NCBI GenBank assembly: GCA_052388375.1
Contig: JBQTIG010000043.1
Location: forward strand, 6,865 to 70,864
Length of the DNA: 64,000 nucleotides
Direction: 5' to 3'
Source of the DNA: Planctomycetaceae bacterium
GTDB taxonomy: Bacteria > Planctomycetota > PLA2
Both the position numbers and the translations under genes were made by a program. Positions 5,404 to 64,000 of this stretch are shown here, piece by piece (the stretch's first letter is position 1; each line of letters opens with the position of its first letter). The notes beneath the pieces are model-generated. The model searched no databases. It had not been told where the DNA came from and worked only from the letters and a program-made list of their open reading frames with translations.

Positions 5404-5432
5404 GGCTATGGACGCGGCCGCGTCTTGTGCTA

Positions 5433-6605: not shown

Positions 6606-6608
6606 TAG
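5511..6608 (+). CDS. IS630-family DDE transposase
   Basis: 365 aa. N-terminal HTH region ([24 protein letters not shown]), then ADEKSQ...[10 protein letters not shown]...[11 protein letters not shown]...[16 protein letters not shown], typical of IS630 transposases. The TAG stop codon is completed by the duplicated TA. Confidence 0.9.
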
Positions 6609-6641
6609 CGTGCTCGAATCCGGAGCAAGAGGAACCCAATC

Positions 6642-36038: not shown

Positions 36039-36039
36039 C

Positions 36040-47450: not shown

Positions 47451-49768
47451 GGGGCTTCCGCGATCCGGATGCGACGCACGACCGTGGTCATGTCGGTCAC
47501 GGGCGCGCGGCTCTTGCCGCTGGGGTCGAACATGTTGAGGAGCGTCTGGTCCACCTTGCGGTAGCGCAACGTGGCCGTGACGACCAGTTCCCCTGACGCG
47601 GGCGCCTCGAACTCGGCCCTCGCGTCCTCGAGCGCGGCCGGGGGGCTCTCGCAGACGAACGTGTACTCCTCGCGGTCGCTGTGGCCGGGGAAGAGCATGC
47701 GCCGGAACCGCGAACCCACCATGTCCCAGAGGTTGTGGCGGTCGATGAGGTTGCCGGCGCGGTCGACGCCCTCCGCCTTGAACAGGAACGAGGCTGGATC
47801 GAGGAACCCCTGTTCGTCGAGCCCGCCGGACCGGAACACCACCTCCTCTCCGCGGGTCACGACGACCTCGATCCAGGCCTGGATGACGTCGAGGGGGCCG
47901 GTCGGGAAGGTGTGGCCCACCTTGCGGTTGTCGGCGAGGACGCGCAAGCGCACCGTCTCCCCCGGGCGCACCGCCTCCGGAGCTTCGATGGCGAGCGGGA
48001 CGATCGGACCGGCCGGCCAGCGGTCGGCGATCTCGGGAATGACGGTTTCGCCGCGGAGCCACTCGTCGGTGAGGCGGACGTGGCGCTCCGCGTGCGGGAG
48101 ACCGTGCAGGAGGGGAAGCCACTGATTGGCGGCGATGAAGCCGTGATGCCTGTGGCGGCCCCCGTTCGCCGCCACGGCCGGGTCGGGCGATTCGACCTGG
48201 CGCATGTGGCAGTCGCGGCAGGCCAGCGCCTTGGTTTCGTCGTGGCGGCCCGGGTTCCTGGGGTCCGGCACGAACCAGTGGCTGCCCTTCCAGGCGTCGT
48301 ACTGGTTCTGCAGCTGCACGCGGGTGGAACGGTTGAGGTCTTTGTCGATGAACTGCTTGTGGCAGGCGCCGCAGAACTCGGGAGTCTTGAGGAGCGGGCG
48401 CGCCAGGCTCGCCTTGTGGTACCGGGGGTAGGCACGGATGAGGAACCGCCCCAGGAAGCCCTCCTCCCCCAGATACCGCTGCGGAGGGGAGAGCGTGTAG
48501 TTCGCGTTGCCATCCACGTCGGATCGGACGATCGCGTGGCAGCTGATGCAGGAAACCCCCTCGTCGGCACCGGGGCTCGACAGGTCCTCGTTGTAGATGT
48601 TCTTGGATCCCGAGAAGAGGGCGATCGGGTCGTGACAGCCCGCGCAGTATCGCGTCGATTCCGCGCCGTTCGCTTCCGCCATCGCGCCCTGGATGAGCTG
48701 GAAGAAGGCGGAACGGGAGGCGTAGCGGTGAGCCGAGGGCTCCCACTCCTCGAGGATCTGCTCATGACAGCCGGTCGTGCCGCAGGTGCGGGATCCCGAC
48801 AGGGCCTCGGGCGCGATCCCGCCGCTCTCCTCGAACGCCGCGCGGTTCCGCTCCAGGTCGGCGCGCGCGCGGGCAAGGAGCCCTTCGAGGAGCTCCCTCT
48901 GCACGGCCGGGCTCGGCTCCTCCGAGACGGCCCGCAAGGCGGCGATGCGGCCGCCGTCGAGACTGTGGCCGTCCAGCTCCTCCGGGTGGCTCTCGCCCCG
49001 CCGCATGGACTCGGAGTCGGCCGCGTGCGCCCGCTCCGCGGCGCCCAGGAAGCCCGCGATCGCCTCGGGTGTCGCGTGCTCGGGCTCGGCGGCCAGCTCT
49101 TCCAGGAAGGCGACCCAGCGCCGGTCGGTGTCGAGGCGGAACAGCCAGTCGGTGCGCGCCAAGCTGGGCCGGAAGGGGTTGTCGCCATAGCGCAACCCGT
49201 AGTTTTCCGGCAGCTTGACGCGCCTTCCCGCGGGGGCCAAGAGCCCTTCCCCCCCGCCGAACACGAATGCGGCGAAGAGAAGGCCCAGCGCCGACACGCG
49301 CGCGATGAGGCTGCCTACGTAGCGCCATTCCCCTCGCCGGTTCCTTCGTACGGTAGTGGCGAGGTGGGCGCCGAGGATGGCGGGCAGGGCGCATCCCGCG
49401 ATCGTGTGCACCAAGTCCCATGCGTACCCGATGCGGCGCCCCCAGAGGGCCTGCACGGTGAGGAAGAGCCCGCTGACCAGGACCGCCAGCAGGACCGCTC
49501 CGGTCGTCCAACCCAGCAGGACCAGATGAGAGAACCGGTCGCGCCAGCGGCGCGCCAGGTGGGGCCCGAGATAGGCGCCCAGGGGCGCCAGAAAGAGGAT
49601 GCCGCCCAGCGTGTGGGCGAGGACGGTCACCTGCGCCCCCGTTCCGAACGGCGCCAGCAGGATGACCAGGCCGGTGGCCGTAAGGAACACGGTCAACGCG
49701 AGGGTCCAGCGCAAGGAGCGCTTCCCCCATGCCTCGCGCGTCTCGGTCGCCAACTCGAGCTGTTTCAT
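47447..49768 (-). CDS. membrane-integral (about 5 TM, His-bearing) domain fused to a periplasmic multiheme cytochrome c
   Basis: Start at Met22 of the track ORF. There are five N-terminal helices with His52/70/81/121/135. Heme motifs are CAGCH, CISCH, CGACH and CRDCH, plus an atypical CGTTGCH (C-x4-CH). The C-terminal region is beta-rich. Confidence 0.8.
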   Translation of the reverse strand: MKQLELATETREAWGKRSLRWTLALTVFLTATGLVILLAPFGTGAQVTVLAHTLGGILFLAPLGAYLGPHLARRWRDRFSHLVLLGWTTGAVLLAVLVSGLFLTVQALWGRRIGYAWDLVHTIAGCALPAILGAHLATTVRRNRRGEWRYVGSLIARVSALGLLFAAFVFGGGEGLLAPAGRRVKLPENYGLRYGDNPFRPSLARTDWLFRLDTDRRWVAFLEELAAEPEHATPEAIAGFLGAAERAHAADSESMRRGESHPEELDGHSLDGGRIAALRAVSEEPSPAVQRELLEGLLARARADLERNRAAFEESGGIAPEALSGSRTCGTTGCHEQILEEWEPSAHRYASRSAFFQLIQGAMAEANGAESTRYCAGCHDPIALFSGSKNIYNEDLSSPGADEGVSCISCHAIVRSDVDGNANYTLSPPQRYLGEEGFLGRFLIRAYPRYHKASLARPLLKTPEFCGACHKQFIDKDLNRSTRVQLQNQYDAWKGSHWFVPDPRNPGRHDETKALACRDCHMRQVESPDPAVAANGGRHRHHGFIAANQWLPLLHGLPHAERHVRLTDEWLRGETVIPEIADRWPAGPIVPLAIEAPEAVRPGETVRLRVLADNRKVGHTFPTGPLDVIQAWIEVVVTRGEEVVFRSGGLDEQGFLDPASFLFKAEGVDRAGNLIDRHNLWDMVGSRFRRMLFPGHSDREEYTFVCESPPAALEDARAEFEAPASGELVVTATLRYRKVDQTLLNMFDPSGKSRAPVTDMTTVVRRIRIAEAP

Positions 49769-49829
49769 GACTCTCTCTCTCTCCAGAGCCCGGCCATGCG
49801 GAACGCTGCGTGCGTGTTGCACCTGCAGC

Positions 49830-49845
49830 ACAAGGAGCGTGCCGT
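49830..49845 (-). promoter_or_regulatory. weak candidate sigma-54-type promoter for the cytochrome/FG-GAP operon
   Basis: The minus strand reads CGGCACGCTCCTTGTG. The -24 GGCACG is good, but the -12 is TTGT rather than TTGC. It lies about 65 nt upstream of the ATG and faces the divergent sigma-54 activator gene. Confidence 0.3.
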
Positions 49846-49878
49846 ACCCAGTCTCGTGCCGGGCAAGGAGTTAGAGCG

Positions 49879-51246
49879 ATGACGACGATGCGCAGCGACG
49901 AAACCGTTGCAACGCATGGGTTGCAGAAGGACGCGCTGAATTGCGCACAACCCGGGGGTTTCCACGCCCTGCTCGACGTCCTGCCGGTAGGCGTTTTCGT
50001 CATCGACGAAGAGCAGCGGGTCTGTTCCATCAACCCTGCGGCCGCGAAGATCCTGGGGGTCGAGGCCGAGGCCGCGGTCGGGAGCACCTGCGAGCAACTG
50101 ATGCGCTGCCGCATTTGCGGACCCGCCTGCGCCACCTGCCATGCCCAGGAGTCGGGCCAGCCCCAGCTCGGCTTCCCCACCGAGATCCGCCGGCGGGACG
50201 GCACCACCTGCTCCCTCCTCATCGACGCCGTGCCGGTGGATGCGAGGCGCGTGGCGGTCATCCTGCGCGACGTGACCGAGGGGGTGCGGATTCGACTGGC
50301 GATGCAGGCGCTCCAGGAGCGCTGGGTGTTTCACGGCATGCTCTGCGTCTCCGCCTCGATGAAGGAGATCGTGGGCCAGATCCGGGACGTCGCGCCCTAC
50401 GCTTCGACCGTCCTGGTCCTGGGCGAGAGCGGCACCGGCAAGGAGGTGGTCGCCCGTGCCATCCACGCGGAGAGCCCGCGCTCCGCCAAGCCGATCGTCG
50501 CCGTGAACTGCTCCGCCTACTCGGAGAATCTCCTGGAGTCGGAACTCTTCGGCCATGTACGGGGGAGCTTCACGGGGGCCGAGCGCGATCGCCGCGGGCG
50601 CTTCGAGATGGCGGAGGGGGGAACCGTCTTCCTGGACGAGATCGGGGAGATCTCGCCCAAGATCCAGGTGAAACTCCTGCGGGTGCTGCAGGAGCGCGAG
50701 ATCGAGCGCGTCGGGGAGAGCAAGCCGAGAGCGGTCGACATCCGGGTCGTGGCCGCGACCAACCGGGACCTGGGCCGCGAGGTGCGGGAGGGTCGCTTCC
50801 GCGAGGATCTCTACTACCGGCTGAACGTCTTCACGTTGACGCTTCCGCCGCTGCGGGAACGCCGCGAAGACATCCCCGCCCTCACGGATCACCTCCTGCA
50901 GCGGATCTCCCAGCGCACCGGCAAGAACGTGCGCCGCGTCTCCGAGGAGGCGCTCGCCATCCTGCTCCACCACTCCTGGCCCGGCAACGTCCGCGAGCTG
51001 GAGAACGTGATCGAGAACGCCGTGGTGCGGGTACGCGGCGAGGTCATCGCCGCGGCGGATCTACCCGTGCCGTTCTACGCCGACGCGGGACCGCAGATCA
51101 CCTCCCTGGACCGCGTCCGCGAGGCCCTGCGTCGCACCGGCGGCTGCGTGACCCGCGCCGCTCGCCTCCTGGGGATGCACCGCACCACGCTCTGGCGCCA
51201 TATGCGCGAGGCGGGGGTCCACCGCGCGGAGTTCCTGGCGGGTTGA
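49879..51246 (+). CDS. PAS-domain sigma-54-dependent transcriptional activator (bEBP)
   Basis: AAGGAG RBS. The PAS region ([24 protein letters not shown]) contains a Cys cluster (see findings). The AAA+ domain has GESGTGKE, the GAFTGA-equivalent GSFTGA and VRVVAATN. A C-terminal HTH reads [18 protein letters not shown]. Confidence 0.9.
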
Positions 51247-51249
51247 CCG

Positions 51250-53103
51250 ATGCGCGCCACTTGGGCGTGGGCCTCGCTCCCTCCCCTGCTCCTTGGTGCC
51301 GCCCTCGCGGCCCCGCCGCGCGAGGAGGAACAGGCCCCCGCCTCGGACTTCGCGGGCGCGGCGAGCTGTGTCGCTTGCCACGCGAGCGAGGCGCGCGCGT
51401 GGCGCGACTCCCCCCATGCGCGCCACGCGACCGCTCTAGCCGAACCGCCGGGTGGCGCGGACGCGGCGGTCGGCTCGCGCTGGATGCAGGCCTATCTGCG
51501 CCGCGATGCGCAGGGGTACCACCGCATCCTCCCGGACTGCTTCGATCTCCGCACCGGGCAGTGGGTCGCCGTCGATGCGGTGCTCGATGCGATCCGGGGC
51601 GACCCCTCGGGCTGGCCCCCGGTGCCCCACGTCGCCCTCGCGGGACGCAGCTTCGAGATCGACTGCTCGGGCTGCCACGCCAGCCGAGCCGAACTCGCCC
51701 TCGATCCGGCCTCCGGAGGCATGCGCGCGCGCTGGGACGATGCCGCCATCGACTGCGAGGCGTGCCACGGACCGGGGGCGGCGCACGCCGAGGCCTGGGC
51801 GCGCCGCGACTCCTCCGTCCCCATGCCGCGCCTGGAAAAGCTCAGTCCCCGGGAGCAGAACGCGATCTGCGCGCGCTGTCACGGAGGCCCTCCCACCGCT
51901 GCGGAGTTCCAGCCCTCCGATGCGGGCGCCTACATCGCCTCCCTCGACGACCGCATCGGATTCTTCCCGGACGGCGCCGCCTCGGGGCAGGTCTACCAGA
52001 TCGCCGCGTTCGCGCGGAGCCCCTGCACCCTTGAGGCAGGGCTCACCTGCGCCGACTGCCACGATCCGCACGGCCCCGGGCTCCGGCCCGCGCCCCACGC
52101 CGACGCCCAGTGCACCCGCTGCCACGAGGAGAAGGCGGGGCGCGCCCACACCTTCCACGACCCGCGCGGGGAGGGCGCGCGCTGCGTCTCCTGCCACATG
52201 CCGCGTCTCCTCTCGGGCATCATGGCCCACCAGCGGGACCACCGCATCGGCATCCCGCTGCCGCAGTCCCCGCACGCCCCCGACGCCTGCACCGCCTGCC
52301 ACGCCGACCAGAGCAAGGAGTGGGCTTCCGAGGCGTGGGGCAGATGGTGGGGCGAGCCGCCGGCCGCGACGCTCGAAGCGATCCTCGCGAACCGCCTCGC
52401 GCGCGACGCGAATCCCGGCGCGACGCCGCTGCTCCGCCGCGCGCTCACCCACCCCGACCCCTTTTTCCGCGCCAATGCCGCCATCTCGCTCCGCGATCCC
52501 GCGAGCCTGTTCGACGACCCGGTGCCGGAGGTGAGACTCGCCGGCGTGCGGGCGGCCGCCCACGGGAGTGATCCGGAGCGGGACCTGCAGCGGTGGCTCG
52601 GGGACACCGAGCCTCGCGTGCGCGCGGCGGCGCTGATCGAGCGGCTCAGGCTCGGCCATCCGCTCGAGCCGCGCTACCGGGACGATCTGGCCCTGGCGGC
52701 GCGGCACCTACGCGACCTGCCGGAGGCGCGCGTCGCCCTCGGCGTCTGGAACCTCCAGGAGGAGCGCCCCCTCGAGGCGCTCCGCGCGTTCCAGGGCGCC
52801 CTCGCCTTCCGTCCAGGCCAGTGCGATGCGTGGCTCGGGCTGGCGACCGCGCTGACGCAGCTGGGCCGCACGGATGAGGCGCTCCAGGCGTCCGCCCGGC
52901 GCGCCGAACTTCTGGCCGCCGCCTCCACGCGCAACCCGGCCGATGCCGTGCTGGCGGTGGAGGCCGCCTCCGCCTGCATCGTCGCGGGTCTTCGCGACCG
53001 TGCCGGCGACCTGCTGCGCGGCGCGGCGGGGCGCCAGCCCCCCGGAGCGACGCGCACGGCGCTCTTTGCGATGCTCGAGCGACTCGCGAAGGAGGGCCCG
53101 TGA
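51250..53103 (+). CDS. octaheme cytochrome c with C-terminal HEAT/TPR-like domain
   Basis: Signal peptide, then eight CxxCH motifs (CVACH, CSGCH, CEACH, CARCH, CADCH, CTRCH, CVSCH, CTACH). About 230 aa of helical repeats follow. It starts 3 nt after the activator stop. Confidence 0.8.
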   Translation: MRATWAWASLPPLLLGAALAAPPREEEQAPASDFAGAASCVACHASEARAWRDSPHARHATALAEPPGGADAAVGSRWMQAYLRRDAQGYHRILPDCFDLRTGQWVAVDAVLDAIRGDPSGWPPVPHVALAGRSFEIDCSGCHASRAELALDPASGGMRARWDDAAIDCEACHGPGAAHAEAWARRDSSVPMPRLEKLSPREQNAICARCHGGPPTAAEFQPSDAGAYIASLDDRIGFFPDGAASGQVYQIAAFARSPCTLEAGLTCADCHDPHGPGLRPAPHADAQCTRCHEEKAGRAHTFHDPRGEGARCVSCHMPRLLSGIMAHQRDHRIGIPLPQSPHAPDACTACHADQSKEWASEAWGRWWGEPPAATLEAILANRLARDANPGATPLLRRALTHPDPFFRANAAISLRDPASLFDDPVPEVRLAGVRAAAHGSDPERDLQRWLGDTEPRVRAAALIERLRLGHPLEPRYRDDLALAARHLRDLPEARVALGVWNLQEERPLEALRAFQGALAFRPGQCDAWLGLATALTQLGRTDEALQASARRAELLAAASTRNPADAVLAVEAASACIVAGLRDRAGDLLRGAAGRQPPGATRTALFAMLERLAKEGP

Positions 53104-54248
53104 GGACCCTTCTCTGCCTCTTGGCGGCGGCAGCCGCGCTCACCCTCGCCTCGGCCGTCGCGCGCGATCGGAACGGCTCGAGGCAGGCGACGGCCCCCGC
53201 GCCCCCTCGGGAGTCCTGCCAGGGCTGCCACGCGGAACGCCACCCGGGCCTCATCGCGCAGTGGGAAGGCGGCGCCCATGCAAAGGCCGGCGTCTCCTGC
53301 GAGGAGTGCCATGGCGAGGACCACGACGCGATCTTCACCAGCAAGGGCAGCGTCCCGATAGGCCGCTGCCAGGACTGCCACCCGAAGGAGGCGCAGGAGT
53401 TCCGGCACAGCGCCCACAACCGGGCGCTTCCCGAAGCGCTCGCCAACGCGCGGCTCTTGGCGCAGATCCCCGCGATGCAGCGGCGCGGCTGCCTCGGCTG
53501 TCACGACATGGGGGGGGACCGGGGGGGGCGCTGCAACGCCTGCCATGGGGCGCATCGCTTCTCGGCGGAGGAGGCGCGCTCGCCGGAGTCCTGCGGCAGC
53601 TGCCACACGGGTCCCGATCACCCCCACATCGAAGCGTGGGAGGCCTCGCGCCACGGCGTCGCCTACCGCACCAGCCGGGATGAGCGCATCGCGCCCACGT
53701 GCGCCAGCTGCCACATGCCCGCCGGCACCCACGACGTGTCGGGCGGGATCACGATCGGGCGGGCCGGGTCGGGCGCGGTTCTCGAAGGCGAGACGCCGCC
53801 CATTCCGATGAAGGCGATTTCGGCTGCGCGGGCTGAGGAGGAGCGCGCGGTCATGCTGGAGCGGTGCGCTGCCTGCCACACCCGCCGCGTCGCGCGGGAG
53901 GCGCTCGAAGATGCCGACGAGATCAAGCGCGAGGCGGATCGGCTCGTCGGGGAGGCGGCGCGCATCGTGCGGGGCCTCTACGAGGACCGTCTGCTCGATC
54001 CCATGCCCGAAGAACGGGTGGCGCATCCCACGGCGGGCCACGCGCTCGTCCTGGGAGGGCCCATGCTCTACGAGAACCAGAGCGAGGCGGAACGGATCTT
54101 CTTTGATCTCGCCAAGTTCGCCCACGCCATCACGTTCAAGGGTGCTTACCATTTGTCGCCCGACCACACCCACTGGCTCGGCATCGCTCGGTTGAAGGCG
54201 AGTCTGGAAGCGCTCCGGGCGGAGGAGCGTCGTCTGCGCAAGCGCTGA
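53100..54248 (+). CDS. short octaheme cytochrome c, HAO family (paralogue of 34458..36038)
   Basis: The GTG overlaps the upstream stop (GTGA). After a signal peptide there are eight CxxCH motifs (CQGCH, CEECH, CQDCH, CLGCH, CNACH, CGSCH, CASCH, CAACH). Blocks colinear with the first paralogue include CGSCHTGPDHPHIEAWEASRHGVAYR and APTCASCHM. Confidence 0.8.
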   Translation: MRTLLCLLAAAAALTLASAVARDRNGSRQATAPAPPRESCQGCHAERHPGLIAQWEGGAHAKAGVSCEECHGEDHDAIFTSKGSVPIGRCQDCHPKEAQEFRHSAHNRALPEALANARLLAQIPAMQRRGCLGCHDMGGDRGGRCNACHGAHRFSAEEARSPESCGSCHTGPDHPHIEAWEASRHGVAYRTSRDERIAPTCASCHMPAGTHDVSGGITIGRAGSGAVLEGETPPIPMKAISAARAEEERAVMLERCAACHTRRVAREALEDADEIKREADRLVGEAARIVRGLYEDRLLDPMPEERVAHPTAGHALVLGGPMLYENQSEAERIFFDLAKFAHAITFKGAYHLSPDHTHWLGIARLKASLEALRAEERRLRKR

Positions 54249-55847: not shown

Positions 55848-55863
55848 CGGCACATCTGTTGCG
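55848..55863 (+). promoter_or_regulatory. sigma-54-type promoter upstream of the NXR-like operon
   Basis: CGGCACATCTGTTGCG matches GGCAC-N5-TTGC exactly. It lies 32 nt upstream of the ATG, with a GGGAGG RBS in between. Confidence 0.6.
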
Positions 55864-55894
55864 CTGAGAGATCTTCAATCCAGCGGGAGGCAAC

Positions 55895-57466
55895 ATGAGG
55901 AAACTGCGGATCGCCCTCGTTTGCGGCACCCTGTTGTTGGCGGCGCTGCTCTCTCGGCCCGGCGCCAGAGCCGCCGACCCCCCCCCTTCGCGCGGCAGGG
56001 AGCTTTACGCGCGCCATTGCGCGGCCTGCCACGGAGCCGAGGGCCTGGGCGACGGGGTCGCCGCCTACCTCCTCTCGCCACGTCCGCGCAATTTCGCGCG
56101 GGGTGAGTTCCGCCTCGTCAGAACCACCAACGGAATCCCCACCGACGAGGACCTCTACCAGGTGATCACGAACGGGATGCCCGGGTCCGCCATGCCTCCC
56201 CACGACCGGCTTAGCGAGGCGGATCGGCGCCTGATCGCGCAGACGGTGCGGGCACTCTGGAGCGCCGGGCTCCGGGCGCGCTATCTCGCCGAGGGGGAGA
56301 GCGAGGAGGACGCCGACACGTTCGTCGTGGAGGACACCACCCCCGGGGCGGCCATCCCCTTCGACGGCGAGACCGAACCGAGCGTCGTCTCCACCGCACG
56401 CGGTCGCCTGGTCTACTTCCAGGCCTGCGCCTCCTGCCACGGCGTCGACGGGCGCGGTGGCACCACGCAGCAACTCGTCGACTCCGAGGGGAATCCCGCC
56501 CCCGCGCGCGACTTCACCCAGGGGGTGTTCAAGGGCGGATCGGACCTCCGCGGGATCTTCGCCCGCCTGCGCGGCGGCATGAGAGGGACCGCCATGCCGA
56601 CCTTCGGCGACAGCGCGCTCTCCCGAAGCGAGGCGTGGGAGGTCGCGCACTTCGTTCGTTCGCTCGTGCCTCCGGGGGCGCAGGCTCGCGTGGCGCAAAC
56701 GACCAAGACGATCACGGCGCGACGCGTCCAGGCCCTCCCGGAAGACGGCGCGGCCTGGCAAGCGGTGCCCGCCGAGTACTTGGCGCTCATGCCGCTCTGG
56801 TGGCGAGACGCGCGGATCGAGGGGGTGCTCGTGCAGGCGGCGCACGACGGCAAGGAGCTCGCGATCCGGCTCACCTGGGACGATCTCACGCGGGACGCGA
56901 CGATCCTTCGACCCCAGGAGTTCCAGGACGGCGCCGCCGTCCAGTGGAGCGCGTCCGACGACCCGCCCTTCTTCGGCATGGGGGACGCGGGAGGCTCGGT
57001 GGCGATCTGGTCCTGGAAGGCCGCGCACCAGGAGGACGCGCAGGGGTTCCGCGACATCGAGGCGATCTATCCCGGCCTCTACCTCGACCACTACCCCTAC
57101 CAGCGCAACACGCGCCCGGGGGAGCGTCCCGACCCCGCCGCGGTCTCGGCGCCCTTCCACGACCCCCGCTTCCTCACGGGTTGGGGCGCGGGCAATCCGC
57201 TGTCGCAGCCGGAGCACGCGCCGCCGGCGGAAGTCGCGGCCGCCAAGGGGCTCGGCACCCTCACGACCGACGCCCCCGAGCTCCACACGGTGCGCGGCGA
57301 GGGACGCTACGACCGCAACGTCTGGACGCTGGTGCTGCTCGCCCCCCTGCGCGAGGGCGCCCAGGCGCCGCGCAGCATCGCCTTCGCCATCTGGGACGGT
57401 GCCCAGGGCGATCGCAACGGGCAGAAGTCGGTGACCGTCTGGCATCGCTTCGCAAAGGAGGAGTAG
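55895..57466 (+). CDS. gamma-type subunit: dihaem cytochrome c fused to an EB_dh (ethylbenzene-dehydrogenase gamma-like, heme b) domain
   Basis: Sec signal, then two class-I cytochrome c units (CAACHGAEG...GMPGSAMPP and CASCHGVDG...GMRGTAMPT). The C-terminal ~270 aa resemble the gamma subunits of type II DMSO-reductase enzymes (NxrC/DdhC/SerC-like) in the block LMPLWWRDARIEGVLVQAAHDGKELAIRLTWDD. Confidence 0.75.
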   Translation: MRKLRIALVCGTLLLAALLSRPGARAADPPPSRGRELYARHCAACHGAEGLGDGVAAYLLSPRPRNFARGEFRLVRTTNGIPTDEDLYQVITNGMPGSAMPPHDRLSEADRRLIAQTVRALWSAGLRARYLAEGESEEDADTFVVEDTTPGAAIPFDGETEPSVVSTARGRLVYFQACASCHGVDGRGGTTQQLVDSEGNPAPARDFTQGVFKGGSDLRGIFARLRGGMRGTAMPTFGDSALSRSEAWEVAHFVRSLVPPGAQARVAQTTKTITARRVQALPEDGAAWQAVPAEYLALMPLWWRDARIEGVLVQAAHDGKELAIRLTWDDLTRDATILRPQEFQDGAAVQWSASDDPPFFGMGDAGGSVAIWSWKAAHQEDAQGFRDIEAIYPGLYLDHYPYQRNTRPGERPDPAAVSAPFHDPRFLTGWGAGNPLSQPEHAPPAEVAAAKGLGTLTTDAPELHTVRGEGRYDRNVWTLVLLAPLREGAQAPRSIAFAIWDGAQGDRNGQKSVTVWHRFAKEE

Positions 57467-57469
57467 ACG

Positions 57470-60400
57470 ATGGAGCGCAGGGATTTCCTCAAGGCGGCCG
57501 GCGCCGGCGTCGCCTTCACCGCCTTCGGCCCCTTCCGTCTGTTCGGGCTCGAGCCGATCGAGGTCGGCAACCCCCTCGCGAGCTATCCCGACCGCGGGTG
57601 GGAGAAGATCTACCACGACCAGTACGCCTACGACGGGAAGTTCCAGTGGGTCTGCTCCCCCAACGACACCCACGCCTGCCGCGTGATGGCCTACACCCGC
57701 AATGGCGTCATCACGCGGATGGGCTCCACCTACGACTACCAGAACTACGCCGACCTCTACGGCAACAAGGCGACGCCCAACTGGAACCCGCGCCAGTGCG
57801 CGAAAGGCTACACCTTCCACCGCGTGGTCTACGGACCTTACCGCCTCAAGCACCCCATCGTGCGCAAGGGTTGGAAGCGCTGGGCGGACGACGGCTTCCC
57901 CTACCTCACCCCCGAGAACCGCGCCCAGTACAAGTTCGACGCGCGCGGCACGGACGAGTTCGAAAGGGTGTCGTGGGATGACGCCCTCGGCTACGTGGCC
58001 AAGGGACTCCGGCAGATCGCGACCACCTATTCGGGGGCCGAGGGCGCGCAGCGGCTACGGGACCAGGGCTATCTGCCCGAGATGATCGACGAGATGGGCG
58101 GCGCGGGCACGCGGACGCTCAAGTTCCGAGGCGGGATGGGGCTCCTCGGCGTGTTCGGCAAGTACGGCATGTACCGGCTCGCCAACTCGATGGCGCTGCT
58201 CGACGACCAGATCCGCAAGGTGGGCGCCGCCGGAGCGAAGGCGGGCCGCACCTGGTCCAACTACACCTGGCACGGGGACCAGGCGCCCGGCCATCCCTGG
58301 GTCCACGGGCTCCAGACCTCGGAGTCCGACTTCCACGACCTGCGCTACTCCAAGCTCATCATCATGGACGGCAAGAACCTGGTCGAGAACAAGATGACCG
58401 ACTCGCACTGGTTCATCGAGTGCATGGAGCGGGGCGCAAAGGTCGTGGTGATCGCCCCGGAGTACGGCCCGCCCTCCACGAAGGCGGACTACTGGATTCC
58501 GATCCGTCCGCAGACCGACGCTGCCCTCTGGCTCGGCATCACGCGCCTCATGATCGACCGGGGCCAGTACGACGAGGGGTTCCTCAAGCGCTTCACGGAC
58601 TTCCCGCTCCTCGTCCGCAAGGACACGCTCCGTCGCCTGCGCGCCGCCGACGTCTTCCCCGACTACAAGAGCGACCTCTCGGCCGACGGGCCCTCCATGG
58701 CGCGCCAGCACTTCGTGAAGGAGGAGCACGACGCCCTCGGGGACTACGTGGTCTGGGACGCCCGCACGCAGTCGCTCAAGCCGCTCACGCGCGACGACGT
58801 GGGGGGACGGCTGGAGCGGAAGGGCATCGACCCCGCCCTCGACAAGGAGCTGACGATCACGACGCAGGACGGGCGGCGGGTGGAGGTGGCGACGCTCTGG
58901 AGCCTCTACCAGGTCCACCTCAAGGACTACGACCTCGACACCGTCTGCGAGATCACCCACTCGCCCCGCGAGCTGATCGTGCGCCTCGCCGACGACATCG
59001 CTTCCATCAAGCCCGTGGCGATCCACCAGGGCGAGGGAATCAACCACTGGTTCCACGCCACGGAGATGAACCGGGCCGCCTACCTCCCCCTCATGCTCAC
59101 CGGCAACATCGGCGTGCGCGGCGCGGGCTGCCACACCTGGGCCGGCAACTACAAGGCGGCGCTCTTCCAGGGCTCGCCCTGGACCGGGCCCGGCTTCAAG
59201 GGCTGGGTGGCCGAGGACCCGTTCCACCCCCAGCGCGACCCCCTGGCGCATGGGCGCGACGTCCCGGTGAAGGGTTACACGAAGGACGAGGAACCCGCCT
59301 ACTGGGACCACGGCGACATGCCCCTCGTGGTGACGACGCCCAAGTACGGACGCCGCAATTTCACGGGCAAGACCCACATGCCCACCCCGACGAAGTCGAT
59401 CCTCTTCAACAACGTCAACCTCATCAACAATTCCAAATGGGCCTACGGGGTGATCCACAACGTCAACCCGAAGGTCGAGTTGATCGTCTCCATCGACATC
59501 CAGATGACCGCCTCGGTGGAGTACGCCGACATCGCGCTCCCGGCCAACTCCTGGGTCGAGTTCGAGGGGCTCGAGGTGACCGCCTCCTGCTCCAACCCGT
59601 TCCTCCAGATCTGGAAGGGCGGCATCCCTCCGGTGTTCGACACCCGCGACGACCTGGCGATCCTCGCCGGGATCGCCGCGAAATTGGCGGAGACGACTGA
59701 GGACGCGCGGTTCACCGACTACTTCAAGTTCGAGTACGAGGGCCGGCGGGACGTCTACATCCAGCGGCTGCTCGACACCTCCACGACCACCTCCGGCTAC
59801 AAGCTCGACGACATCATGGCGGGCAAGTACGGCGTCCCCGGCGCCGCCCTCATGCTCTTCCGCACCTACCCGCGCGTGCCTTTCTACGAGCAGATCCACG
59901 ACGACGAGCCCTTCTTCACGGACCACGGCCGTCTCCAGTCCTACACGGACGTTCCGGAGGCGATCGAGTACGGCGAGAACTTCATCGTCCACCGCGAGGG
60001 GCCGGAGGCGACGCCCTACCTGCCCAACGTGATCCTCTCCACCAACCCCTTCGTGCGGCCGGACGACTACGGGATCCCGCTCGACGCGGAGCGCTGGGAC
60101 GACCGCACCGTGCGCAACGTGAAGATGTCGTGGGCCCAGGTGAAGCAAACCCGCAACTTCCTCTGGGAGAAGGGCTTCCGCTTCTACATGCTCACCCCGA
60201 AGACGCGCCACCGCGTCCACAGCCAGTGGTCCAACGTCGACTGGCATCTCATGTACGACTCCAACTTCGGCGACCCCTACCGCGTCGACAAGCGCAGTCC
60301 CGGAATCGGCGAGCACCAGCTCCACATCAATCCGGAAGCGGCGCGCGCGCTGGGCATCGAGGACGGGGACTACGTCTACGTGGACGCCAATCCGGCCGAC

Positions 60401-60898
60401 CGTCCCTATCTCGACGCCAAGCCCTCCGACCCCTTCTACAAGGTGGCGCGCTGCATGGTCCGCGTGAAGTACAACGCAGCCTACCCCTTCGACACCGTGA
60501 TGATGAAGCACGCGCCCTTCATCGCCACGGAGCGGAGCGTGAAGGCCCACGAGACGCGAGCCGACGGGCGCGCCCTGAGCGAGGGCACCGGCTACCAGGC
60601 CAATTTCCGCTACGGCTCCCAGCAGTCGGTGACCCGCAACTGGCACATGCCGATGCACCAGACCGACACGCTCTTCCACAAGAAGAAGGCGGCCGTCGGG
60701 TTCCTGTTCGGCGGCGAGGCGGACAACCATGCCATCAACACGGTCCCCAAGGAGACGCTCGTGCGCGTCACGAAAGCGGAGGACGGGGGGCTCGGGGGCG
60801 AGGGGGTCTGGGCCGTCGCGACTACCGGGTTCACGCCCGCCCACGAGAACGAGGCCATGCGCCGTTACCTGGGCGGCGACTTGACGAAGGAGGCCTAA
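57470..60898 (+). CDS. nxrA: periplasmic (Tat) molybdopterin alpha subunit, Nitrospira/anammox NxrA-type (NarG-like) nitrite oxidoreductase / nitrate reductase
   Basis: AAGGAGG RBS and a Tat signal (MERRDFLKAAGAG). The 1142 aa length is typical of periplasmic NxrA. The N-terminal FS0 region KFQWVCSPNDTHACRVMAYTRNG has the layout C-x3-D-x3-C. The body is a large MopB domain. The catalytic direction cannot be read from sequence. Confidence 0.85.
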   Translation: MERRDFLKAAGAGVAFTAFGPFRLFGLEPIEVGNPLASYPDRGWEKIYHDQYAYDGKFQWVCSPNDTHACRVMAYTRNGVITRMGSTYDYQNYADLYGNKATPNWNPRQCAKGYTFHRVVYGPYRLKHPIVRKGWKRWADDGFPYLTPENRAQYKFDARGTDEFERVSWDDALGYVAKGLRQIATTYSGAEGAQRLRDQGYLPEMIDEMGGAGTRTLKFRGGMGLLGVFGKYGMYRLANSMALLDDQIRKVGAAGAKAGRTWSNYTWHGDQAPGHPWVHGLQTSESDFHDLRYSKLIIMDGKNLVENKMTDSHWFIECMERGAKVVVIAPEYGPPSTKADYWIPIRPQTDAALWLGITRLMIDRGQYDEGFLKRFTDFPLLVRKDTLRRLRAADVFPDYKSDLSADGPSMARQHFVKEEHDALGDYVVWDARTQSLKPLTRDDVGGRLERKGIDPALDKELTITTQDGRRVEVATLWSLYQVHLKDYDLDTVCEITHSPRELIVRLADDIASIKPVAIHQGEGINHWFHATEMNRAAYLPLMLTGNIGVRGAGCHTWAGNYKAALFQGSPWTGPGFKGWVAEDPFHPQRDPLAHGRDVPVKGYTKDEEPAYWDHGDMPLVVTTPKYGRRNFTGKTHMPTPTKSILFNNVNLINNSKWAYGVIHNVNPKVELIVSIDIQMTASVEYADIALPANSWVEFEGLEVTASCSNPFLQIWKGGIPPVFDTRDDLAILAGIAAKLAETTEDARFTDYFKFEYEGRRDVYIQRLLDTSTTTSGYKLDDIMAGKYGVPGAALMLFRTYPRVPFYEQIHDDEPFFTDHGRLQSYTDVPEAIEYGENFIVHREGPEATPYLPNVILSTNPFVRPDDYGIPLDAERWDDRTVRNVKMSWAQVKQTRNFLWEKGFRFYMLTPKTRHRVHSQWSNVDWHLMYDSNFGDPYRVDKRSPGIGEHQLHINPEAARALGIEDGDYVYVDANPADRPYLDAKPSDPFYKVARCMVRVKYNAAYPFDTVMMKHAPFIATERSVKAHETRADGRALSEGTGYQANFRYGSQQSVTRNWHMPMHQTDTLFHKKKAAVGFLFGGEADNHAINTVPKETLVRVTKAEDGGLGGEGVWAVATTGFTPAHENEAMRRYLGGDLTKEA

Positions 60899-60899
60899 C

Positions 60900-61155
60900 G
60901 TGCCCAAGAACGAGCCGGACGCCACCGATCCGATGACCCTTACCGGCGTCGAGGTGCCCGCGACGGAGGAGGACGTCGTGGCCATGGCGACCGCCTTTGC
61001 CGAGGAGTTCGCCTTCAGCGGCTGGGACGCTCCGCGCATCGCCGCGATGTTCCAGAACCCGTTCTATGCCGGACCGCATCTCGCCTGGCGCACGCTCGGC
61101 AAGGCGCGCGTGACGGCGATCATCGAGCAGTCCGTGCGTCCCCTCCGGAGGAACC

Positions 61156-61172
<17 letters not shown>
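60900..61172 (+). CDS. small hypothetical protein (90 aa) between the alpha and beta genes
   Basis: GTG start 7 nt after a perfect AAGGAGG. The amino-acid composition is balanced (AEEFAFSGWDAPRIAAMFQNPFYAGPHLAW). It has no signal peptide and overlaps the beta-subunit start by 17 nt. Confidence 0.5.
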
Positions 61173-62382
<1,210 letters not shown>

Positions 62383-62391
62383 GAGGCGGTC

Positions 62392-63093
62392 ATGAACACC
62401 TCGGAACGCAACGTCCAACGCGCCGTTCTCTGGAGTTGGCTCGGCCACGCCTTCCGCCGGGACGCGCCCGTCGAGGACCGTTCCACCCTCGAGCGCGCGC
62501 TTCCCGCCGCCTCGCGCGCCTTCGGCCTCGACGCGACCGCCGCGCTCGCCGCCCGCGCCGGAACCGTCGATCCGGCCTCCGCCTACGACCGGCTGTTCGG
62601 CCACACGGTGCGGGGGCCCTGCCCCACCTACGAAGGGGAGTATGGCGAGCCGCGCGGCTACCGCTTCGCGCACGAGATCGGGGATCTCCAGGGCTTCTAT
62701 GCCGCGTTCGGTCTGCGACCCGCGCGGCGGGCGGGCGAACGGGCCGACCACATCGGCACCGAGTGCGAGTTCTACGCCTTCCTCGCGCTCAAGGAAGCGT
62801 GCGCCGAGGAGCTCCACGGCGCGGAAAAGGCCGAACGCTGCCGCGAAGCACGCGCGCGCTTCTTGCGCGAGCATCTCGGCCGCTTCGCGCCCGCGTTGGC
62901 CGCACGGGTGCGGCGACGCAGCGAGGAGCCCTGCTTCGTCGAGGCCGCCAAGCTCCTCGAGGAGGCCCTCAAGGTGGAGTCGGAGGCGTTGGGCGTGGAG
63001 ATCGGACCCGACGACCTCGGGCTGCGCGCCGACGCCGGGAGCCCGGAAGACGCCTGCATCAGCTGCTCCGCGTCGACCGAGACGCCTCGATGA
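62392..63093 (+). CDS. TorD/NarJ-family redox-enzyme maturation chaperone
   Basis: AGGAGG RBS. It contains YDRLF....GPCPTYEGEYG and ADHIGTECEFYAFL, typical of TorD/NarJ/DmsD-like chaperones. Confidence 0.75.
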   Translation: MNTSERNVQRAVLWSWLGHAFRRDAPVEDRSTLERALPAASRAFGLDATAALAARAGTVDPASAYDRLFGHTVRGPCPTYEGEYGEPRGYRFAHEIGDLQGFYAAFGLRPARRAGERADHIGTECEFYAFLALKEACAEELHGAEKAERCREARARFLREHLGRFAPALAARVRRRSEEPCFVEAAKLLEEALKVESEALGVEIGPDDLGLRADAGSPEDACISCSASTETPR

Positions 63094-63947
63094 AAATCGT
63101 CTTCGATCCCCTGCTCGTCGAGGAGGCCGTGTACCTCCTGGCGCGCGCCGACCAGGGACGCTGGAAGGAGATGCGCGCGCGCATCGACCCGCTCTACGGG
63201 GGCGAGGAACGGCCGATGGCGATCGCGCACCTGACCCTGTTCCGGGCGTGGGGCGCGGCGGCGCCGTTCGAGGAGCTCCTCCCGCTGGCGGAGGGCTCGT
63301 CCCGCATGCTCGTGGCCCGTCCGCGATCGCCCTCGGACGAGGGAGCGGAACTTCTGGTGGGAGCGGAGCGAACGGTCCTCGTGCGGGTCGCACCGGAGCG
63401 GCTCCTCGAGCCGGCCGCGCTGCGCCGCTTCCTGCGTCACGAGATGCGCCATGTGTCCGACATGCTCGATCCCGCCTTCGGCTACCACCCGGACCTTGGC
63501 GTAAAGGGCCGTACGAAGGCGCAGGAGAACCTCGTGCGCGATCGCTACCGCACGCTCTGGAACCTCGCGATCGACGCGGTGGAGGAGCCTCCCGTGCCCT
63601 CCGAGGTGCGCCGGCGGCAGCTCGCGCGCGCCTTCTCCGCCCTCGAGCCGGACTCGTTGCGGCAGTTGACGTCCGCCTTCGCCGATCCCGCTCGCCGCCG
63701 CCACGAGGAGTTGGCCTCCGCCGCCCGCAACCCGTGGGCTTGGCTCGGCGTCCCGCGCCGCCACGGTCCCGCGGCGGGAGAGCCGTGCCCCCTCTGCGGG
63801 TTCCCGACCCATGCCTGGTCCCCCGCTCCCCCCACCGACGCCATCCAGTCCCACTACCCCGACTGGAGTCCCGCGGAGGGCGTCTGCGTGCAGTGTGCGG
63901 ACATGCTACGCACCGCGCAGCCGTGCCCCCCCGCCCCCCTCTCCTGA
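63090..63947 (+). CDS. hypothetical protein with HExxH motif and C-terminal Cys4 zinc-ribbon-like motif
   Basis: The ATG overlaps the chaperone stop (ATGA). This is the real part of track ORF 61683..63947. It contains RFLRHEMRHVSDMLDP, and near the C-terminus CPLCG...CVQC. Confidence 0.5.
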   Translation: MKIVFDPLLVEEAVYLLARADQGRWKEMRARIDPLYGGEERPMAIAHLTLFRAWGAAAPFEELLPLAEGSSRMLVARPRSPSDEGAELLVGAERTVLVRVAPERLLEPAALRRFLRHEMRHVSDMLDPAFGYHPDLGVKGRTKAQENLVRDRYRTLWNLAIDAVEEPPVPSEVRRRQLARAFSALEPDSLRQLTSAFADPARRRHEELASAARNPWAWLGVPRRHGPAAGEPCPLCGFPTHAWSPAPPTDAIQSHYPDWSPAEGVCVQCADMLRTAQPCPPAPLS

Positions 63948-63951
63948 ACGC

Positions 63952-64000
63952 ATGAAGCGCGCCCTGCCCAACGCCATCACGGCGTTGCGCCTGCTGCTCA
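63952..64000 (+). CDS. 5' fragment of a probable CDP-alcohol phosphatidyltransferase
   Basis: MKRALPNAITALRLLL matches the common N-terminal PN.IT..R pattern of this family. Only 16 codons are visible. Confidence 0.35.
   Translation, partial: MKRALPNAITALRLLL

Follow-up and report, generated by a model that had tools for sequence, protein, structure and literature searches.

Organization of the locus

The analysed window, a stretch of DNA of 64,000 nt, contains between positions 55895 and 63947 six closely packed genes of the same direction, which encode a gamma subunit, an alpha subunit, a 90-aa protein, a beta subunit, a TorD-like chaperone and a HExxH/Zn-ribbon protein, in this order (Table 1). 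This operon order had already been given by an earlier reading made from the letters alone (the sequence-only reading) and it is confirmed here with coordinates. The successive intergenic gaps from the gamma gene to the HExxH gene are 3, 1, -17, 9, and -4 nt. The claim of a strong ribosome-binding site in front of each gene holds for five of the six genes, which are preceded by a GGAGG-type site, but not for the HExxH gene, which has none and whose ATG overlaps the TorD stop codon.

Table 1. Features of the cassette and of its surroundings in the window.
Feature	Position	Strand	Evidence
NapA	35992-38406
HAO-family gene, 8 haems	53100-54248		1.6 kb upstream of the cassette, after the sigma-54 activator
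Enhancer-binding protein, PAS / sigma-54 activator / HTH_8 (candidate regulator)	49810..51246	+	Pfam Sigma54_activat E 6.6e-72, PAS, HTH_8
Sigma-54-type -24/-12 motif GGCAC-N5-TTGC (predicted promoter)	55849..55862	+	exact match, 33 nt upstream of the gamma ATG
Gamma subunit, 523 aa	55895..57466	+	Pfam PF13442/PF00034 x2, PF09459 (EB_dh)
Alpha subunit, 1142 aa, NxrA-type Mo-bisMGD catalytic subunit, Tat-exported	57470..60898	+	PDB 7b04_B, 1736 bits
90-aa conserved protein, no assigned function	60900..61172	+	between alpha and beta in related loci
Beta subunit, 408 aa, NxrB-type four-cluster Fe-S subunit	61156..62382	+	7b04_A E 9e-168, 562 bits; Pfam Fer4_11 and related families
TorD/NarJ-like maturation chaperone (delta)	62392..63093	+	PF02613 E 1.7e-17
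HExxH protein, 285 aa, cytoplasmic, conserved, no assigned function	63090..63947	+	(H)ExxH..D motif and C-terminal four-Cys ribbon

The six-gene arrangement is not unique to this genome, since 46 of the 47 related loci whose flanking DNA is long enough contain all six genes in the same order. The cassette is present in at least 80 further uncultured species from many phyla, and the locus is therefore a further representative of a widespread group. At least 13 different labels at the phylum level are found among the related loci, and many hosts bear names of lineages not known as nitrifiers, such as Omnitrophota, Syntrophobacteraceae, Binatia, and Latescibacterota. The alpha subunits of the related loci are 71–84% identical to that of the window and the G+C content of their alpha genes ranges from 42 to 69%. 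The genes flanking the cassette are not conserved across the related loci. No nitrate transporter is linked to the cassette; none would be needed, and this is compatible with either catalytic direction.

The catalytic subunit

The alpha, beta, and gamma subunits match the NXR-A, -B, and -C chains of the Kuenenia nitrite oxidoreductase (NXR) structure, PDB 7B04, which supports the proposal of a periplasmic NXR-like complex of the Nitrospira/anammox type. The alpha subunit shares 62% identity over 896 columns with Kuenenia NxrA (7b04_B), while its scores against perchlorate reductase PcrA (196 bits), ethylbenzene dehydrogenase EbdA (142 bits), and NarG (106 bits) are far below the 1736 bits obtained with NxrA; with the NCBIfam EbdA equivalog, whose cut-off is 2000 bits, it scores 155 bits. 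Its length, its Tat export and the C-x3-D-x3-C arrangement of the FS0 region were described correctly in the sequence-only reading: the protein starts with the twin-arginine signal MERRDFLK (PF10518, E 5e-4) and contains the motif C62-S-P-N65-D66-T-H-A-C70, in which CSPNDTHAC is identical in KsNxrA. Residues C62, D66, C70, C110, N65, and D270 align with C67, D71, C75, C115, N70, and D275 of KsNxrA, whose roles as FS0 ligands, substrate Asn and Mo-ligand Asp are described (PMC8387239). By alignment, C62, D66, C70, and C110 are thus the FS0 ligands (3 Cys/1 Asp), N65 is the substrate Asn and D270 the Mo ligand, so that the comparison with the Kuenenia structure finds all FS0, Mo, and substrate residues kept, which excludes enzymes of the chlorate, selenate, and DMS type. 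Assignment of the alpha subunit to the Clr/Ser/Ddh/Pcr/Ebd group is likewise rejected by the scores of at most 196 bits, and a cytoplasmic NarGHI or Nitrobacter-type NXR by the Tat signal, the low NarG score, the Cys/Asp FS0 in place of H-x3-C-x3-C, the missing NarI gene and a gamma subunit that is an EB_dh protein.

The alpha subunits of 82 cassettes form a clade of their own that excludes KsNxrA and the sequence P0204 (NJ bootstrap 100/100, in a tree built without named Nitrospira or Nitrospina sequences). Members of this clade are 60–65% identical to KsNxrA, which resembles the published distance between Kuenenia and nitrite oxidizers, as NxrA of Nitrospira and Nitrospina is about 60% and that of Scalindua 66% identical to the Kuenenia protein (Chicano et al., PMC8387239). 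The locus is predicted from its sequence to encode a periplasmic molybdenum enzyme of the nitrite oxidoreductase family within the type II DMSO reductase family.

The gamma subunit

The gamma subunit consists of a Sec signal peptide and two class-I cytochrome c domains followed by an EB_dh haem b domain, as the sequence-only reading had stated, with CxxCH motifs at residues 42 and 178 and the haem b residues Met362 and Lys511. Residues 32–260 match the dihaem cytochrome Kustc0457 (PDB 6h5l_B, E 2.3e-36) over its whole length, and residues 310–520 match NXR-C (7b04_C, E 1.4e-17), with M155 and K305 of the latter aligning with M362 and K511. The only hydrophobic stretch is the N-terminal signal peptide and a membrane helix is absent, from which the protein is predicted to be soluble and to carry three haems. 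In an alignment of 58 homologous sequences the haem b Met and Lys and all haem ligands are invariant. Exactly two CxxCH motifs occur in 187 of 187 gamma homologues, and 185 of these have no membrane helix, the two exceptions resembling wrongly extended N-termini. All three Pfam domains, two of cytochrome c and EB_dh, are carried by the best 120 database homologues (330–648 aa) with the exception of P0056, an EB_dh-only protein of 330 aa that covers 63% of the gamma query. The explanation that the fusion is an assembly or frameshift artefact joining two genes, which was named beforehand as the finding that would speak against the fusion, has practically no probability: no point in its favour was found and it is refuted by this domain composition and by the uninterrupted ORF formed by the two halves in 71 of 71 independent related loci.

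Beta subunit, chaperone and accessory proteins

The beta subunit has a hydrophilic N-terminus without a signal peptide of its own, and its NxrB-like start, MPNVNNRQIGRMMSYPYE...QFAFV, is as the sequence-only reading gave it. The TorD-like protein also matches TIGR03482, the type-II DMSO reductase chaperone, with an E value of 1.2e-19 that lies under the cut-off of this model. The 90-aa protein has no signal peptide and is translationally coupled to alpha and beta; its ORF lies between these genes in nearly all related loci (80 extracted vs 83 alpha genes). Neither Pfam nor NCBIfam gave a match for it. Its AF2 model consists of four helices (pLDDT 82), with 22 N-terminal residues that are of low confidence yet conserved, and a fold search with this model was without a match. 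The HExxH protein ends the cassette in 46 of 46 complete related cassettes, has no Pfam or NCBIfam match, and all of its 83 homologues are named "hypothetical." The gene and its motif, H117-E118-x-x-H121, are present as claimed earlier, but as a conserved motif it stands only in part, since H121 is invariant, E118 occurs in at least 90% and H117 in 50–80% of the sequences. The other invariant residues are D124, C233, C236, C266, and C269. Its AF2 model (pLDDT 94.9) shows a weak likeness to zincin peptidases, with a best E value of 0.03.

Promoter and regulation

The near-consensus sigma-54 promoter proposed in front of the operon is present as an exact motif. In the window, GGCAC-N5-TTGC occurs twice compared to 0.47 expected occurrences, both times in the right orientation and just upstream of a gene start. 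Of 67 related loci, 13 have a motif upstream of gamma that agrees in at least 9 of the 11 positions, compared to 3.4% of random windows of 300 nt; in the close relative L001 the motif is not conserved. A homologue of the enhancer-binding protein lies directly upstream of the cassette in L001 and L002 (62% identical) and in L065 (44%), which makes this activator a candidate regulator. The -24 GG and -12 GC elements, their correct spacing and a nearby enhancer-binding protein are all found at the locus and suggest that the cassette may be under sigma-54 control.

Proposed mechanism and direction of catalysis

Our reading of the whole locus, to which we give a probability of about one half, is that its product is a nitrite:nitrate oxidoreductase of the NXR lineage, soluble and located in the periplasm, which is encoded by a self-contained six-gene cassette, has a haem c exit and acts mainly in nitrate reduction. 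The TorD-like chaperone would assist the loading of NxrA with Mo-bisMGD in the cytoplasm, NxrA would then be exported through the Tat pathway with NxrB as its passenger, and gamma would be exported apart from them by Sec and take up one haem b and two haems c. By homology to PDB 7B04, electrons would travel between the Mo site, FS0 (3 Cys/1 Asp), FS1–FS4 in beta, the Met/Lys haem b and the two His/Met haems c. The fused dihaem "plug" may join the enzyme directly to the periplasmic cytochrome c network of its host; a dedicated membrane anchor or a separate shuttle would thereby become unnecessary, which would explain the movement of the cassette between phyla. In the host, nitrate would be reduced with electrons supplied via quinol and cytochrome bc-cytochrome c, induced by low oxygen or nitrogen oxides.

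The sequence-only reading held that sequence by itself does not set the catalytic direction, with which we agree; the evidence is circumstantial. Among the genes that recur beside the cassette, one for an Rrf2-family regulator lies immediately upstream in 14 loci; hemerythrin is found in 7, Crp/Fnr in 4, and NnrS and a NarL-type response regulator in 3 each. Such families often regulate the anaerobic respiration of nitrogen oxides or occur alongside it. Together with NapA and two octahaem HAO-family cytochromes in the window, and with the many carriers named as lineages not known as nitrifiers, they lead us to lean toward cytochrome-c-fed nitrate reduction. The enzyme family is reversible in vitro, as is the Kuenenia enzyme, whose nitrate reduction with artificial partners was about 25 times faster than its nitrite oxidation (PMC8387239). 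Against nitrate reduction, the neighbour evidence comes from a minority of loci, and a second periplasmic nitrate reductase looks redundant because the host already has a dedicated NapA.

It is possible, but less probable, that the enzyme is a nitrite oxidase in vivo, with haem b and the two haems c conveying the electrons of nitrite to an acceptor of high potential, such as a cytochrome c oxidase. The host would in this case be a nitrite oxidizer, perhaps a facultative one, that has gone unrecognized. The identity of alpha to Kuenenia NxrA equals that of true nitrite oxidizers, the characterized members this close (Nitrospira, Nitrospina, and anammox bacteria) all oxidize nitrite in vivo, and the 3Cys/1Asp FS0 and the Met/Lys haem b are the same. 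NapA would already serve periplasmic nitrate reduction, a haem c exit is thought necessary for nitrite oxidizers (PMC3578206), and sigma-54-dependent regulators accompany Nitrospira nxrAB as well (PMC6606698). For Planctomycetota sequences with a strong match to KsNxrA, Suarez et al. (2023, PMC10732223) prefer an assignment to NxrA; 19 of these sequences score above 1000 bits and are read as probable NxrA. On the other side stand the presence of the cassette in genomes whose labels include Omnitrophota, Syntrophobacteraceae, and Binatia, the neighbours of the NO or anoxia type, a haem-copper oxidase subunit in 2 loci only, and the absence of a terminal oxidase and of carbon-fixation genes from the 64-kb window.

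We regard it as improbable that an octahaem HAO-family enzyme serves as docking partner of the fused dihaem domain, so that NXR and the HAO-like protein encoded upstream exchange electrons directly. In that case, nitrite oxidation could supply the reduction of nitrite to NO, as has been proposed for anammox bacteria, or hydroxylamine/NO oxidation could supply the reduction of nitrate. The match of gamma to the whole of Kustc0457 would fit this idea, as would the stoichiometric complex of Kustc0457 with the nitrite reductase HAOr (PMC8042395), the proposal of Chicano et al. (PMC8387239) that NXR electrons reach an NO-forming nitrite reductase, and the 8-haem gene 1.6 kb upstream. However, likeness of dihaem modules is no proof of a common docking partner, a DegT-like gene stands between the HAO-like gene and the cassette, and the HAO neighbourhood is not a property of the cassette because L019 is the only one of about 80 related loci with an HAO-like neighbour.

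Even more improbable is another substrate, namely chlorate, perchlorate, selenate, DMS or a hydrocarbon, as in the type II DMSO reductases with an EB_dh gamma subunit. The soluble alpha-beta-gamma-delta composition is that of Clr, Ser, Ddh, Pcr, and Ebd, and NCBIfam places all four subunits in generic type II subfamily models only, below their cut-offs. The alpha subunit, whose grouping with the chlorate, selenate or DMS enzymes had been named as the outcome that would contradict the NXR assignment, scores far higher to NxrA than to PcrA or EbdA, its substrate Asn (Ile in Ebd) and CSPNDTHAC are the same as in KsNxrA (PMC8387239), and chlorite dismutase or a similar partner is absent from the window.

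Comparison with known systems

Homologues of NxrA have been reported in phyla without known nitrifiers (Matheus Carnevali et al., 2021, PMC8141241; Mosley et al., 2022, PMC9562985; Suarez et al., 2023, PMC10732223), and the set of 80 related loci includes several nzgw MAGs from the Mosley study. These surveys call nxrA and nxrB by HMMs or trees, and neither the six-gene cassette nor the tri-haem gamma subunit nor the two accessory proteins are described in their available parts. It might be speculated, although we consider this rather unlikely, that the cassette is a distinct, horizontally mobile NXR class not described as such, which is portable between phyla by its fused dihaem exit, that many carriers are unrecognized nitrite oxidizers or HAO-coupled as proposed in anammox, and that the two accessory proteins are new NXR maturation factors. 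If true, this would mean unrecognized nitrite oxidizers in phyla without known nitrifiers, such as Planctomycetota, Acidobacteriota, Methylomirabilota, Binatia, Omnitrophota, and others.

Ser, Clr, Ddh, Pcr, and Ebd likewise consist of alpha, beta, and gamma subunits with a delta chaperone, contain an EB_dh haem b gamma and exchange electrons with periplasmic cytochromes c (PMC3578206), but they differ from the window's system in their distant alpha (at most 196 bits), a His in FS0 and a separate cytochrome c partner. The NXR-ABC of Kuenenia stuttgartiensis (PDB 7B04; PMC8387239) shares the Tat-exported NxrA with a 3Cys/1Asp FS0, Asp Mo ligand and substrate Asn, NxrB, an EB_dh-type gamma with Met/Lys haem b, and a soluble complex. 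To judge by locus numbering, one or more small ORFs lie between nxrA and nxrB there as well, namely kustd1701 and kustd1702 between kustd1700 and kustd1703. In contrast, Kuenenia NXR-C carries one haem in 322 aa, its EB_dh domain being distantly similar to the window's gamma (67 bits), and a 15-gene cluster encodes the c-type cytochromes (Kustd1711, NXR-T) as proteins of their own, whereas in the window a tri-haem gamma opens the operon and six genes make up the complete system. Kuenenia NXR forms tubules in the anammoxosome.

The earlier suggestion that the fusion is unusual because NXR systems keep c-type cytochromes and NxrC apart fails, since fused haem-c/haem-b proteins had been described before, under the name alt_NxrC, from Nitrospina, Nitrospira, and anammox bacteria, and the cassette itself recurs in 46 of 47 loci. 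Nitrospina alt_NxrC contains 1–3 haem c sites and a haem b domain, with two of these proteins predicted to be periplasmic (Lucker et al., 2013, PMC3578206), and a dihaem alt_NxrC_2 is listed for Nitrospira moscoviensis (Mundinger et al., 2019, PMC6606698). The likeness is one of architecture, as haem c and a DMSO-reductase-type haem b are joined in one polypeptide (PMC3578206; PMC6606698; Mueller, 2020, PMC8026999). The alt_NxrC that is expressed in Nitrospira or conserved among NOB and anammox bacteria has a membrane helix and is encoded together with a cytochrome bd-like oxidase and further (di-/tri-haem) cytochromes c, away from nxrAB; no bd-like oxidase lies beside the cassette in the window or among its recurrent neighbours. 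The window's gamma, unlike alt_NxrC, is without a membrane helix, is the sole gamma subunit and is, as the genes are laid out, co-transcribed with nxrAB.

Operon Organization and Promoter

The NXR-like operon consists of six co-directional genes (window 55895–63947), which encode the gamma and alpha subunits, a 90-aa protein, the beta subunit, a TorD-like chaperone and an HExxH/Zn-ribbon protein, and which are backed by a GC3 (codon-position G+C) of 0.86–0.95. The intergenic gaps amount, in gene order, to 3, 1, −17, 9, and −4 nt. The sequence-only reading had placed a strong ribosome-binding site before every gene; GGAGG-type sites are found in front of genes one to five, while the sixth, the HExxH gene, is instead coupled to the TorD-like gene via an ATGA overlap. 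The sigma-54-type promoter suggested ahead of the operon is represented by an exact GGCAC-N5-TTGC motif, with the gamma ATG 33 nt further on. Exact copies of this motif occur twice in the 64-kb window compared to 0.47 expected, and the other copy, which precedes the start of a CBS-domain gene by 13 nt, may mark a further sigma-54 promoter. Ahead of gamma in related loci, the motif is more frequent than the background (13 of 67 loci vs. 3.4%) but not universal, and no sigma-54 promoter conserved across the family was found. In L001, a related Planctomycetota locus, the motif is absent, yet the activator gene adjoins the cassette. Searching the window for Rfam families and tRNAs gave no match, so that it holds no Moco riboswitch.

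Window coordinates of the operon genes (ORF listing) and of further features
Feature	Position	Strand	Remarks
DDE_3 transposase with HTH domains (insertion sequence)	5511-6608	+	~49 kb from operon
CBS-domain gene	13231-13761	-	
GGCAC-N5-TTGC motif	13774-13787	-	exact
bc1-type cytochrome b	33398-34447	+	
8-haem HAO-family cytochrome	34458-36038	+	
NapA	35992-38406	+	NF010055 955 bits, equivalog cut-off 904
794-aa protein, four CxxCH	47447-49831	-	divergent from activator gene
PAS/sigma-54 activator	49810-51246		
617-aa 8-haem cytochrome and 382-aa HAO-family protein	51250-54248	+	directly 3' of activator gene
GGCAC-N5-TTGC motif	55849-55862		exact
gamma	55895-57466	+	523 aa
alpha	57470-60898	+	1142 aa
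small ORF	60900-61172	+	90 aa
beta	61156-62382	+	408 aa
TorD-like protein	62392-63093	+	233 aa
HExxH protein	63090-63947	+	285 aa
new ORF (MKRALPNAITALRLLL...)	63952-64000	+	begins five bases past HExxH stop codon

The Catalytic Core

The alpha subunit matches the Kuenenia stuttgartiensis enzyme KsNXR-A (PDB 7B04 chain B) over its full length with 1736 bits, while the next solved relatives, the perchlorate reductase PcrA, ethylbenzene dehydrogenase and Escherichia coli NarG, score 196, 142, and 106 bits. Across 896 aligned columns it is 62% identical to KsNxrA; KsNxrA itself shares 66% with Scalindua, ~60% with Nitrospira and Nitrospina, 40% with Nitrotoga and Hydrogenobaculum and ~20% with Nitrobacter-type NXR, NarG, and EbdA (Chicano et al., 2021; PMC8387239). 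By sequence similarity, alpha thus appears to belong with the Nitrospira/Nitrospina/anammox group. All residues singled out by Chicano et al. (PMC8387239) are present, including the FS0 ligands C62, D66, C70, and C110 (KsNxrA C67, D71, C75, and C115), the substrate residue Asn65 (N70) and the Mo ligand Asp270 (D275). The bit scores and the kept ligands separate alpha from the chlorate, selenate and DMS enzymes; a grouping with these had been set as the test of the proposed NXR identity, which stands. Alpha carries a Tat signal (RRDFLK), beta matches NXR-B with an E-value of 9e-168, and the TorD-like protein is recognized by PF02613 as well as by the model for type II DMSO reductase chaperones.

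A Fused Tri-Haem Gamma Subunit

Gamma is composed of two cytochrome c domains and an EB_dh domain (Pfam). Residues 32–260 align with Kustc0457 over almost its full length (PDB 6H5L chain B; E 2.3e-36), and residues 310–520 with NXR-C (7B04 chain C; E 1.4e-17), in which the haem b ligands Met155 and Lys305 correspond to gamma Met362 and Lys511. Both CxxCH motifs, M100, M234, Met362, and Lys511 are invariant across 58 aligned homologues, and M100 and M234 are likely the distal haem c ligands. Since these ligands are invariant and the N-terminal signal peptide is the sole hydrophobic stretch, gamma is a soluble subunit of the periplasm with three haems. The window encodes no further EB_dh protein.

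Searching protein databases with gamma gave 863 homologues, from sources including Planctomycetota, Omnitrophota, Acidobacteriota, and Chlamydiota MAGs. The 120 listed span 330–648 aa, and all but one of these 120 share the three Pfam domains, the exception being P0056 (330 aa) with EB_dh only. All 187 full-length homologues contain exactly two CxxCH motifs, and in none of them was a genuine membrane helix found. Another database homologue, P0034, has an Rrf2 domain at its N-terminus, which is probably a wrongly called start. An assembly artefact, named beforehand as the explanation that would undo the fusion, is rejected, as both gamma halves lie in one uninterrupted ORF in 71 of the 71 loci showing both. 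Together with the observation that the complete set of six genes, in unchanged order, is found in 46 of the 47 loci with sufficient flanking DNA on either side, this indicates that the fusion is real and not rare.

Two Accessory Proteins

In nearly all related loci, alpha and beta are separated by the 90-aa ORF (80 ORFs vs. 83 alpha genes extracted). It obtained no family assignment; its model is a four-helix protein for which the fold search gave no match (best E above 6), and its N-terminal peptide MPK.EPD.TDP..LTGVE.PA is conserved and modeled with low confidence. The HExxH protein is the last gene in all 46 complete related cassettes, and each of its 83 database homologues is annotated as 'hypothetical'. 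Searches against Pfam and NCBIfam gave no match. H121, D124, and four Cys residues are invariant. Its structure was modeled with very high confidence (pLDDT 94.9), and the fold search returned nothing significant (best E 0.03 for a putative zincin peptidase; TM scores 0.2–0.3); the modeled fold resembles zincin peptidases only faintly. Lucker et al. (2013; PMC3578206) described 'one putative zinc finger' protein conserved among the nxr regions of Kuenenia, Nitrospira, and Nitrospina, and the HExxH protein may belong to this family. A signal peptide is absent from both accessory proteins, and we infer that they act as cytoplasmic maturation or quality-control factors.

Distribution and Genomic Surroundings of the Cassette

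When a single genome of each GTDB species was scanned, 556 loci were found to encode a relative of alpha. Among these 556 loci, the best 80 encode alphas 71–84% identical to that of the window and carry at least 13 phylum-level labels, comprising Planctomycetota, Methylomirabilota/Rokubacteria, Binatia, Acidobacteriota, Omnitrophota, Desulfobacterota-type names, Gemmatimonadota, Latescibacterota, Hydrogenedentota, Eiseniibacteriota, Sumerlaeota, Neomarinimicrobiota, and others; the loci nearest to the window are from Planctomycetota MAGs (L001, L003), which makes Planctomycetota the probable affiliation of the window as well. The 82 cassette alphas, chosen as best matches to the window's alpha, are pairwise at least 67% identical (median 76%) and form a clade excluding KsNxrA and P0204 in a neighbor-joining tree that used a partial Kuenenia sequence (bootstrap 100/100). 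P0204, a database protein 62–63% identical to the window's alpha, is the closest of the 50%-cluster representatives that fall outside this clade, and its locus (L084; JGI 3300010938 contig, 163–6868) is arranged differently, with alpha followed by a 136-aa ORF, beta, TorD, and a protein with a MOSC domain; the HExxH gene is absent from L084, the upstream side of which is cut by the contig end.

Across related loci the G+C content of the alpha gene ranges from 42 to 69%, and no conserved genomic context was found around the cassette, flanking genes varying from locus to locus. Such a G+C spread and such differing flanks are typical of an old and self-sufficient module that has been transferred many times. 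The regulators differ between the hosts as well: a PAS/sigma-54 activator is found in the window and three related loci, an Rrf2-family regulator directly upstream of the cassette in 14 loci, Crp/Fnr nearby in 4 loci, and a NarL-type response regulator in 3. Further recurrent neighbors are hemerythrin (7 loci), NnrS (3), MoaA (8), and MobB (3), and a small 4Fe-4S ferredoxin lies directly 3' of the HExxH gene in 6 loci. Examples of Rrf2, hemerythrin and ferredoxin neighbors within L004–L082 are found at L080 1795–2241, L011 409–990, and L032 12625–13035. Beyond the cassette a new ORF begins in the window, and in L001 a CDP-alcohol phosphatidyltransferase gene follows (18065–18619); the downstream synteny of both may extend further than the cassette.

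Elsewhere in the window, cytochrome b, HAO-family cytochrome and NapA genes lie head to tail. NapA scores 930.1 against TIGR01706, slightly below the cut-off of 930.55, and neither NapB nor NapC was seen beside it; the two cytochromes are unusual electron-input partners for a periplasmic nitrate reductase. The 617-aa cytochrome downstream of the activator gene contains TPR/HEAT repeats. The 382-aa protein (53100–54248) is a short octahaem HAO-family member with 6t5e, 4n4j, 6hif, and 6h5l_A as best PDB matches, and its alignment stops near residue 420 of the ~500-aa oxidative HAOs. The 794-aa protein shows a cytochrome c554-like stretch and a weak cytochrome b561-like hydrophobic region at its N-terminus.

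Electron Transfer and Direction of Catalysis

By homology with 7B04, electrons would pass between Mo-bisMGD, FS0–FS4, and haem b, and the fused dihaem domain of gamma would carry this wire on to the protein surface. As the dihaem domain would reach the surface, the complex could exchange electrons with the periplasmic cytochrome c pool of its host with no need for a dedicated partner or a membrane anchor. KsNXR works in both directions in vitro with artificial partners, oxidizing nitrite at 61 nmol/min/mg vs. reducing nitrate at 1.5 µmol/min/mg (PMC8387239).

We put the probability that nitrate reduction is the main direction of the cassette enzyme at about 0.5. This is suggested by the NO-, nitrate- and anoxia-type regulators recurring beside the cassette, by the many hosts in lineages not known as nitrifiers, and by the presence of NapA and two octahaem HAO-family cytochromes in the same window. 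The same NapA can be read in the opposite sense, as a second periplasmic nitrate reductase seems redundant; moreover, the close characterized relatives all oxidize nitrite in vivo, and sigma-54-dependent regulators accompany the nxr genes of Nitrospira too (PMC6606698). We regard a function as nitrite oxidase as a tentative alternative, less likely than nitrate reduction. A direct link of the enzyme to the neighboring HAO-like protein could be derived from the homology of gamma to Kustc0457, a dihaem cytochrome forming a stoichiometric complex with a nitrite-reducing HAO-like enzyme of Kuenenia (PMC8042395). However, an HAO-like neighbor occurs in only one other related locus, and such a link is improbable. 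That the enzyme acts on a different substrate is very unlikely.

Comparison With Known Systems

Nitrite oxidoreductase is the source of nearly all nitrate on Earth, and matches to 'nxrA' in phyla without known nitrifiers are scored routinely in metagenomic surveys, irrespective of what these enzymes do. Of such forms, the window clearly exemplifies the commonest, with six fixed genes, a built-in cytochrome c exit and two strictly co-inherited uncharacterized accessory proteins. The locus is chiefly useful as a well-defined representative of this very common, uncharacterized cassette, and it provides a compact target for heterologous expression and for reinterpreting nxr counts in metagenomes.

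The cultured nitrate reducers Thermogutta terrifontis and Limisphaera, which have distant Nar/NXR-like enzymes, were considered as phenotype anchors and set aside on the basis of gene order; the order in Thermogutta is alpha-beta-gamma-TorD, unlike that of the cassette. Nitrospina gracilis encodes four 'alternative NxrC' proteins, of which the three additional copies combine one to three haem c sites with a haem b domain; a periplasmic location is predicted for alt_NxrC2 and alt_NxrC4 (PMC3578206). Nitrospira moscoviensis expresses the dihaem alt_NxrC_2, which has one membrane helix (PMC6606698), whereas gamma has none. Nitrospinae, Nitrospirae, and anammox bacteria share a conserved, membrane-integral alt_NxrC that is clustered with a bd-like oxidase (PMC8026999). 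NXR-like genes in MAGs of non-nitrifiers have been reported repeatedly, and several MAGs of these surveys are among the best 80 of the 556 loci. The sequence-only reading identified the enzyme correctly but was mistaken in regarding the fusion as novel, as both fused alternative NxrC proteins and such genes are already published. No description of a fixed six-gene cassette with a soluble tri-haem protein as sole gamma was found in the literature searched, and its description adds modestly to what is known rather than introducing a new type of system. It bears on the role of the fused alternative NxrC in true nitrite oxidizers, as here such an architecture is the only gamma subunit.
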